From the NCBI GenBank assembly GCA_030599585.1, contig JAUVNS010000001.1:1-64000 (forward strand): 64,000 bases of DNA, written 5' to 3'. Below, in pieces: positions 1,705 through 3,276 of the stretch (the first letter of the stretch is position 1; every line of letters begins with the position of its first letter). Under the pieces are notes generated by a model. The model searched no databases. It was not told where the DNA came from and saw only the letters and a list, made by a program, of their open reading frames with translations. Source of the DNA: Promethearchaeota archaeon. GTDB taxonomy: Archaea > Asgardarchaeota > Lokiarchaeia > Sigyniarchaeales > SOKP01. The position numbers and the translations under genes are program-made.

Positions 1705-1785
1705 GCCAGCGTATCCGAGTAGTTAAGGAGGCGGCCTGCAGAGCCGTTGCTTTCAGCGTCGTGGGTGCAAATCCCACCGCTGGCT
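1705..1785 (+). tRNA. tRNA-Cys(GCA) with 13-nt variable arm
   Basis: Acceptor GCCAGCG/CGCTGGC plus discriminator T; D stem TCC/GGA; anticodon stem GCGGC/GCCGT with loop CTGCAGA (GCA at 1738-1740); T arm GTGGG-TGCAAAT-CCCAC; directly upstream of cysS. Confidence 0.92.
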
Positions 1786-1830: not shown

Positions 1831-3276
1831 GTGAAAGTATACAATAGTCTAACATTCCAAAAAGAAGAATTTATCCCGTTAGAGTCCGGTAAAATCAAGA
1901 TGTACGTTTGTGGCGTTACCGTTTATGGTTCGCCTCACCTAGGACACGCAAAGTCTGCTGTTGCATTTGATTTAATTCATAGGTTTTTAAAATATAAAGG
2001 ATACGAGGTAAACATAGTAAAGAATTACACTGATATAGACGATAAAATTATCAAAGCCTCGCAAGAAAGCAATGAAGATTATAGGATATTAAGTGACCGG
2101 CATATAGCCGAATACGAGGAAATCATGGAATTATTAAATGTTGAAAAAGACACTCAAAATCCTCGAGCAACAGATGTAATTGATCTGATTATCAAATTCA
2201 TCCAAGAATTAATTTTAAAAGGTAATGCTTATGAGCAAAATGGATCAGTTTATTTTTCAGTTAAGTCCTTCCCCAAGTATACTTCTATCCTTCAAAGAAT
2301 AAAGGAACACGATACTGAAAGCGAAGAAGAGGATTATATGGTAGATCAAGATACTGCATTTGGCGAAGATAAGCTCGATAAGCGTGATTTTGCTTTATGG
2401 AAAAAAATGAAAAAAGGAGAGCCGTATTGGGAAAGCCCTTGGGGTAAGGGACGTCCTGGATGGCACATCGAATGTTCAGTCATGATCTTAAATTACTTAG
2501 GAGAAAGGATTGATATTCACGGAGGGGGGCAGGATCTGAAATTTCCTCATCATAGAAACGAGATAGCTCAATCAGAATCTTATACAGGCAAAGAATTTGC
2601 TAAATACTTCTTACATAATGGTTATGTTAATGTAAACAACGAAAAAATGTCAAAAAGCCTAAATAATTTTTTTACTGTCGCTGACATTATCAAAGATTAC
2701 GATCCTATGGTTATCCGCTGGTATCTGATATCGAGTCATTATCGAAGTTCAAATAATTACACTTCAGACAGTCTGGAACCCGCAAAAAAGACTTACAATA
2801 GATTAATTAATACTATCAAGAAAGTTAACGATGCCGAGTTTGGCGAAGGACCGTCTAAACAGCTTGATGGATTGATTAATAAAATTACTGAATCTAAAGA
2901 TAAAATTATTGAAGCCATGGACGACGATTTCGACACCCCCGTAGCTTTAGCTGAACTATTAACCCTATTTAGAGAAATAAATAAAGCCCTATTACAAGAG
3001 GGGTTAAAAATTAATCAATCGTTCAAAGAATTATTCTTTAATTATATTGAGTTTATTGAAGAAATTTTCGGGATATTTCCTTTTTTGAAATCTAAAACGC
3101 TACCTTTCTCAACGGTTGGCAACGACGAGAAGGATAACCTCATAAAAAATCTTATTAATTTGATTATTGAAACGCGAATAGCATTAAGAGAAAAGAAACT
3201 TTATGAGCTAAGCGATATAATCCGAGATCGGTTGAAAGAATTGGGGCTCGATATCGAAGATAAAAAAGTAAAATAG
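1831..3276 (+). CDS. cysS: Cysteinyl-tRNA synthetase (class I)
   Basis: YVCGVTVY..PHLGHA (HIGH), DFALWK, GRPGWHIECS, DIHGGG.DL.FPHH, KMSKS; start moved to GTG 1831 because the longer ORF overlaps the tRNA. Confidence 0.95.
   Translation: MKVYNSLTFQKEEFIPLESGKIKMYVCGVTVYGSPHLGHAKSAVAFDLIHRFLKYKGYEVNIVKNYTDIDDKIIKASQESNEDYRILSDRHIAEYEEIMELLNVEKDTQNPRATDVIDLIIKFIQELILKGNAYEQNGSVYFSVKSFPKYTSILQRIKEHDTESEEEDYMVDQDTAFGEDKLDKRDFALWKKMKKGEPYWESPWGKGRPGWHIECSVMILNYLGERIDIHGGGQDLKFPHHRNEIAQSESYTGKEFAKYFLHNGYVNVNNEKMSKSLNNFFTVADIIKDYDPMVIRWYLISSHYRSSNNYTSDSLEPAKKTYNRLINTIKKVNDAEFGEGPSKQLDGLINKITESKDKIIEAMDDDFDTPVALAELLTLFREINKALLQEGLKINQSFKELFFNYIEFIEEIFGIFPFLKSKTLPFSTVGNDEKDNLIKNLINLIIETRIALREKKLYELSDIIRDRLKELGLDIEDKKVK

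Follow-up and report, generated by a model that had tools for sequence, protein, structure and literature searches.

A Cysteine tRNA with a Hairpin Variable Region and an A18/G55 Elbow beside a Bacterial-Type CysRS Gene in a Loki-Type Asgard Archaeon

The tRNA-Cys(GCA) gene near the start of the window, by which we mean the whole 64,000-nucleotide stretch of Promethearchaeota archaeon DNA that was analyzed, is probably the organism's working cysteine tRNA, charged directly by the adjacent bacterial-type cysteinyl-tRNA synthetase (CysRS) and carrying two lineage-specific structural changes. These changes concern the length of the variable arm, which is a textbook division of tRNAs, and the G18·Psi55 contact, one of the tertiary contacts most strongly conserved in all of biology. 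In the explanation we favor, the tRNA keeps the cysteine identity set (GCA, U73, G1-C72, and G37) and a normal 7/5 acceptor/T-arm geometry and would be charged by the CysRS encoded 45 nt downstream, presumably by that enzyme only. Neither SepRS nor SepCysS was found in the organism's own genome, and no other route to Cys-tRNA is therefore visible. The 8 extra nucleotides would form a short hairpin (4 bp including U44, a 3-nt loop, and then UC) that is most likely kept as a mini variable arm and that may be neutral or mildly stabilizing. At the elbow, an A18·G55 contact would replace the near-universal G18·Psi55 contact, with G19-C56 and U54-A58 staying in place. A changed genetic code is not indicated by this variant.

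The tRNA-Cys gene and the adjacent CysRS gene

Two detectors, ARAGORN and Rfam RF00005 (55.3 bits, E 3.4e-09), identified the plus-strand gene as a tRNA (Table 1). Read off the sequence, U8 and A9 are followed by a D stem of 3 bp (U10-A25, C11-G24, and C12-G23) that ends in a mismatch, G13·A22. The anticodon arm, whose loop is CUGCAGA, is normal, and the T stem has 5 bp. The variable region consists of the pairs U44·G, G-C, C-G, and U-A around a UUC loop, followed by UC. Thus, the anticodon GCA and discriminator U, the 13-nt variable region with its 4-bp stem, and the 3-bp D stem that the preliminary description had noticed were all confirmed by direct reading, as was the presence of a CysRS gene at the same locus.

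Table 1. Coordinates of the tRNA-Cys gene, its parts, and the neighboring CysRS gene in the window
Feature	Position	Strand	Basis
tRNA-Cys(GCA) gene, 81 nt, intronless, CCA not encoded	1705..1785	+	ARAGORN, Rfam RF00005, tRNA-Cys covariance model
Acceptor stem, 7 bp	1705-1711 / 1778-1784	+	Read off sequence
D loop AGUAGUUA; A (1721) and G (1722) in the G18/G19 places	1718..1725	+	Sequence; AG-Y-AG-... kept wherever the T loop has G55
Anticodon GCA, then G37 at 1741	1738..1740	+	Sequence, ARAGORN
Variable region, 13 nt	1748..1760	+	Sequence; hairpin 1748-1758, unpaired UC 1759-1760 (C48)
T loop UGCAAAU; G55 at 1767 replaces near-universal U/Psi55; U54, C56, and A58 retained	1766..1772	+	Sequence
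Discriminator U73, Cys identity element	1785..1785	+	Sequence
Cysteinyl-tRNA synthetase, 481 aa, GTG start, bacterial-type class I	1831..3276	+	ORF list, Pfam PF01406, PDB 8qhp_A

When set against the definitions of the tRNA classes, the gene departs from class I at two places: its variable region has 13 nt with a 4-bp stem rather than a loop of 4 to 5 nt, and it has AG and UGC in place of G18G19 and U(Psi)55-C56, with G19 and C56 retained. A variable region of more than 10 nt that forms a stem-loop, here one of 13 nt, is the structural mark of class II. However, the class II identity, a Ser or Leu anticodon with G73 or A73, is lacking, and the gene instead has the GCA anticodon and the U73 of tRNA-Cys. 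U73 was invariant among all of the tRNA-Cys homologues compared. Genes of this kind may be mislabeled or underscored by tRNA finders.

The genome comprises 4.85 Mb in 52 contigs, of which the window is C20, and has a completeness score of 100%; the relatives of its CysRS in public genomes are labeled Promethearchaeota or Promethearchaeia, i.e., Loki-type Asgard archaea. A search of this genome with R1, a covariance model built from tRNA-Cys homologues, returned one tRNA-Cys match at 108.5 bits; the runner-up, at 46.5 bits, is a tRNA-Leu, and no second tRNA-Cys was detected with this model in a genome scored as complete. Among the genome's 33 tRNA matches, only tRNA-Cys has a UGC T loop, and the rest combine UUC with a GG D loop; G55 was detected in this one tRNA of the genome. 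When run without introns, ARAGORN found just 17 tRNAs, suggesting that most tRNA genes of the genome are interrupted. A 138-nt tRNA match elsewhere in the genome (C8:35969-36106) has an odd T loop, CUCAUAU.

The protein encoded downstream from the GTG at 1831 has the CysRS domain PF01406 (tRNA-synt_1e; 405.9 bits) and DALR_2, and its best match of solved structure is PDB 8qhp_A (E 1.7e-130). Beyond Promethearchaeota, its nearest relatives are bacterial (Clostridium and Desulfarculus, 42 to 46% identity), which fits the bacterial origin of many archaeal CysRS genes. A sigma-70 promoter scan of the locus used a bacterial model and is not meaningful for an archaeon.

We examined the synthetase for a counterpart of the extra arm. 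In genus g1, 23 loci retain the order tRNA-Cys-CysRS whether the tRNA has the long or the short arm, and CysRS is 479 to 483 aa long in both groups of this genus. An acidic segment, EHDTESEEED, begins at CysRS residue 159 and is an insertion of about 7 residues relative to 8qhp_A, part of it aligning to a 7-residue gap. Short-arm relatives carry this segment too, with no difference in its length or character, and it is thus excluded as a partner of the arm. The preliminary description had suggested a lineage-specific tRNA-Cys/CysRS pair; the arm and the elbow swap are indeed features of the lineage, but nothing supports coadaptation of the tRNA and the enzyme, because the acidic insert is shared with short-arm species. 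Class I synthetases approach the tRNA from the side opposite the variable region. On this general knowledge, the mini arm would face away from CysRS, and this would explain how the enzyme could tolerate it.

The elbow swap and the variable-region hairpin among related genomes

To place both changes in the lineage, tRNA-Cys genes were gathered from 151 genomes of the class, about 125 of which were readable. In this survey, of a kind the preliminary description had proposed, the hairpin is present in 51 genomes and A18/G55 is present in about 85. The swap itself, which had been suspected from the AG of the D loop and the UGCAAAU T loop, holds up. Wherever a tRNA-Cys has G55, it also has A18 (about 85 genomes in families f1, f2, f4, and f6), and each T loop of the form UGCRA goes with AG at the 18-19 place. 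In family f1, the A18/G55 state is found in genera g1, g13, and g16 to g23 and in most of g12; in family f2, it is found in genera g2, g8, and g11; family f4 and one f6 genome have it as well. U55 goes with G18 or C18 in about 30 genomes (f5, f7, f3, and part of f1 and f2). The combination of a UUC T loop with GG occurs in f5, f7, genus g9 of f2, and genera g14 and g15 of f1. One f2 gene (L070) is ambiguous at 18/55.

A third type of elbow combines CG with a normal UUC T loop. It is found in ten genomes of g12 (L106 to L113, L124, and L125), one of g15 (L126), and one of f3 (L060). Some tRNA-Cys genes of the class can thus have C at position 18 as well.

Because A18 always occurs with G55 and G18 or C18 occurs with U55, the 18/55 swap is genuine covariation. 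Both states exist within family f1 and within family f2, near-identical orthologues differ at exactly 18 and 55 (for example, genus g14 compared with short-form g1), and G19, C56, U54, and A58 are invariant across the homologues compared. This covariation favors a direct contact between A18 and G55 that takes over from G18·Psi55. In the geometry that we envisage, G55 would keep the T-loop-turn phosphate contact of U55, like the G of a GNRA loop, and A18 would still intercalate, donating its N6-H to O6 of G55. With G55 occupying the site, Psi55 cannot be made in this tRNA. The series of G18/U55 and A18/G55 orthologues is material for asking what the elbow contact requires.

The hairpin is less widespread and has been seen always on the A18/G55 background. 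Its 51 carriers among the roughly 125 readable genomes belong to parts of genera g1, g12, g16, and g17 and to family f4, where all 3 of 3 genomes have it. In these genomes there are 17 distinct hairpin sequences, each of which forms 3 to 4 bp. Pair 1 is U-A or U·G and pair 2 is G-C or G·U across the 17 variants, with compensatory double changes at pair 3 (C-G, U-A, or G-C) and pair 4 (U-A or C-G). The loops vary in both length and sequence and include UUC, UUU, UUUC, AUUC, AUUA, AUCC, GAAA, and GCAA, among others. Since every variant pairs despite its different sequence, it is the helix and not the sequence that is maintained. The recurrence of the same architecture in 51 related genomes also argues that the hairpin is not a chance feature. 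On sequence comparison, then, the hairpin with A18/G55 is a trait of the lineage, not one confined to this window. The preliminary description had left room for a long-arm tRNA-Cys being the documented norm of its lineage; the arm is common there, but we found no description of an archaeal tRNA-Cys with a long arm or with G55 in the literature.

Close relatives carry a 5-nt variable loop, UAUUC, instead of the hairpin, and the CysRS tree for genus g1 requires at least two changes in hairpin state. Because close relatives have a short-loop orthologue, the extra arm is a recent and dispensable addition. Near-identical orthologues with and without it offer test material for how a class I synthetase can accommodate an arm like those of class II.

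We also considered how the arm fits into the fold of the whole molecule. The cloverleaf including the hairpin has a predicted energy of −31.4 kcal/mol, to which the hairpin contributes −2.0 kcal/mol, and the unconstrained minimum free energy (MFE) fold has one of −33.0 kcal/mol, a gap of 1.6 kcal/mol. In the MFE fold, the insert pairs with the anticodon loop and stem and displaces the anticodon arm. This reflects a local match in the window at 1736-1756, where most of the insert, GCUUUCAG, can pair with the anticodon loop and the 3' side of the anticodon stem (CUG-AGAGC). An alternative structure of the precursor thus exists. However, the variants of family f4 are without complementarity between the insert and the anticodon arm, and we therefore treat it as incidental.

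Intron, serylation, and SepRS explanations of the extra arm

We next consider whether the insert stays in the mature tRNA. Its 8 to 9 nt could be removed after transcription as a miniature or noncanonical intron or a leftover of one, so that the mature molecule would be an ordinary class I tRNA-Cys. This genome and its relatives are rich in tRNA introns, some of them at noncanonical positions, and the insert has been gained or lost among close relatives, with at least two changes in one genus, as would fit a mobile or intron-like element. Moreover, many unannotated insertions in Asgard tRNAs have been reported in a preprint, in which those in the variable region fit the BHB motif least, at 21% (bioRxiv 10.64898/2026.10.13.758758).

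The BHB definition as restated in that preprint was applied to each insertion relative to its nearest compact orthologue, with a shift of ±3 nt allowed. An unconstrained BHB scan gave many chance motifs and was usable only after restriction to insertion boundaries. As positive controls, we used 51 distinct longer insertions (10 to 32 nt) of the same tRNA-Cys genes, located at various sites such as 10/11, 15/16, 22/23, 37/38, and 59/60. BHB-like motifs were assigned to 43 of these 51 controls, 21 of them canonical (hBHBh', hBH, or HBh') and another 22 of the relaxed type that has an outer helix, in most cases at shift 0. In contrast, the classifier assigned a canonical BHB to none of the 14 variable-region insertions within the ±3-nt shift. 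One was of the relaxed type, its outer helix appearing at shift 3; eight had a bare 3-of-4 helix, and five had nothing or were unclassifiable. A bare 3-of-4 helix is a chance outcome over seven shifts, and 13 of the 14 are thus at chance level or unclassifiable. By this motif test with its positive controls, the hairpin is ruled out as a BHB intron.

Three further observations speak against removal. The inserts have 7 to 9 nt, and the BHB-like insertions here all have at least 12 nt. The hairpin is autonomous, at times closed by a GNRA tetraloop, and is preserved by compensatory changes. Finally, by reasoning from the sequence, a cut at a loop-helix form of the motif would give a variable loop of 6 nt from which the conserved C48 is missing. 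Because canonical BHB motifs are lacking and the insert is shorter than any BHB-like insertion, we read it as a mini variable arm that is most likely retained in the mature tRNA, and removal in any of the above forms seems improbable. Even where tRNA introns abound, as in these Asgard archaea, an insertion should not be taken for an intron by default.

The tRNA-Cys genes of relatives have introns of 10 to 32 nt, which sit at various positions depending on the species, including 10/11, 15/16, 22/23, 33/34, 37/38, and 59/60, and for the most part fit the BHB motif at the exact boundary. Carriers are L007, L012, L018, L020, L029, L100 to L104, L106, L124, and L137 to L140, and some genes have two. 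In some relatives, covariance matches without a 5' exon raised the idea of a split tRNA-Cys. This was rejected, as 1.5 kb of upstream DNA revealed that these genes have an ordinary intron at 10/11, about 30 nt long.

If the arm is retained, its likeness to a serine arm raises the matter of charging. In the organism's own tRNA-Ser genes (C28:27647-27746, C4:24081-24181, and C24:283335-283438, outside the window), the variable arm begins at position 44 with a 4-bp stem, which is capped by a GNRA tetraloop and followed by UC. The arm of tRNA-Cys follows the same layout, a 4-bp stem from position 44, a loop of 3 to 4 nt, and UC, and this shared layout might hint at the arm's origin, for example, by copying from tRNA-Ser. 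The variable arms of its tRNA-Leu genes are built differently: a single unpaired base precedes a 3-bp stem with a 4-nt loop, and three unpaired bases follow.

Such an arm could let SerRS charge tRNA-Cys as well, a dual identity that the preliminary description had put forward for an organism that uses Sec. The likeness of the two arms is the strongest argument for this idea, and on sequence grounds some recognition by SerRS is conceivable. The latter part was right in that Sec machinery is present: SepSecS is encoded outside the window (473 bits, C28:17005-18306), and the organism therefore probably uses Sec. No tRNA-Sec scored above the Rfam threshold in the genome, and RF01852 gave no match at the tRNA-Cys locus. 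A weak 119-nt match at C8:200928-201046 could be an intron-containing tRNA-Sec.

The serylation part was not supported. Every own-genome tRNA-Ser examined has G73 (tRNA-Leu has A73), and tRNA-Cys has U73. Serine at cysteine codons would be harmful where this is the sole tRNA-Cys. With its 7/5 arms and 3-bp D stem, the molecule differs from tRNA-Sec, so that its use by PSTK or SelB is not expected. A route through SerRS, PSTK, and SepCysS is rejected for this genome, given that the search did not find SepCysS; a phosphoseryl intermediate could not be rescued by this enzyme, and with SepRS missing too, serylation has no downstream route. SerRS recognizes the long arm together with G73 and is reported to need both (PMC7609411). 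Dual charging of this tRNA is thus very improbable, and direct charging by the adjacent CysRS is still the reading that we prefer.

The preferred reading can be extended by asking what allowed the arm to arise. SepRS, a class II synthetase that faces the variable-region side, or SepCysS may constrain tRNA-Cys to a short variable loop, and the extra arm would then be tolerable, or a useful block, only where the indirect SepRS/SepCysS route has been lost. The absence of both enzymes from this genome agrees with such a constraint, as does the lack of a SepRS match in 47 of the 50 long-arm f1 genomes. Most short-arm G55 genomes, on the other hand, do have SepRS, which holds in g1, g12, and g16. 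Furthermore, the long arm of genome G132 coincides with a SepRS fragment bearing an in-frame TAG.

However, all three f4 genomes combine the long arm with SepRS, two others (G113 and G120) combine it with a full-length SepRS, and many short-arm genomes are also without SepRS (g14, part of g12, G023, and family f2). The CysRS tree of genus g1 provides just 2 independent contrasts (sign test, p = 1), and many of the genomes surveyed are incomplete MAGs. Given these caveats, the link between the arm and SepRS absence is a lead and not a finding, and we regard a SepRS constraint as a doubtful extension of our explanation. The orthologue series could show whether SepRS constrains the shape of tRNA-Cys.

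A bolder version would make both changes functional, marking a switch in which direct charging by a bacterial-type CysRS took over from the indirect SepRS/SepCysS route. The arm would then be a block against the SepRS machinery or a consequence of release from it, and A18·G55 would be a substitute found by nature, isosteric with G18·Psi55, that also removes Psi55 from tRNA-Cys. We consider this unlikely. The SepRS fragment of G132 lies at a contig end (C13:4-870) and may be a decaying SepRS gene.

Comparison with known tRNA systems

Four known systems resemble this gene in part. Archaeal BHB introns resemble its insert in being insertions relative to compact orthologues, and the insert occurs in an intron-carrying tRNA-Cys lineage. 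However, no 4-bp exon-intron helix with 3-nt bulges can be drawn here, and the insert has just 8 to 9 nt and is a self-contained hairpin.

The organism's own class II tRNAs, those for Ser and Leu, share with it a stem-loop variable region of more than 10 nt, and the layout is identical to that of the tRNA-Ser arm. Unlike them, tRNA-Cys has a Cys anticodon, U73, and a loop of 3 nt.

The selC* tRNA-Cys genes known from anaerobic bacteria (Mukai et al. 2017, described in PMC7609411) also combine Cys identity elements (GCA or UCA in selC*, with U73) with a long variable arm, and some have a dedicated CysRS encoded nearby. As described there, they differ in being bacterial, in their tRNA-Sec-like 8/4 geometry and longer anticodon stem, and in being extra isoacceptors. 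The tRNA-Cys studied here is archaeal, has 7/5 geometry, and is the sole tRNA-Cys, and its CysRS is full length with an anticodon-binding region. With a 7-bp acceptor stem and a 5-bp T stem, it does not have the 8/4 or 9/4 geometry (12- to 13-bp branch) of a selC* or tRNA-Sec-like molecule.

Canonical archaeal class I tRNA-Cys(GCA) is charged by CysRS and, where present, also by SepRS. The gene in the window shares with it GCA, U73, G1-C72, G37, the 7-bp acceptor stem, the 5-bp T stem, and G15-C48. Its purine-purine mismatch at 13·22 is of the type found in the tRNA-Cys of E. coli, which carries A13·A22, and an intact CysRS gene adjoins. In contrast to the canonical form, it has a 13-nt hairpin variable region rather than one of 4 to 5 nt and A18·G55 for G18·Psi55. 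Taken together, the closest known relative of this gene is an ordinary archaeal tRNA-Cys, all of whose identity features it has.
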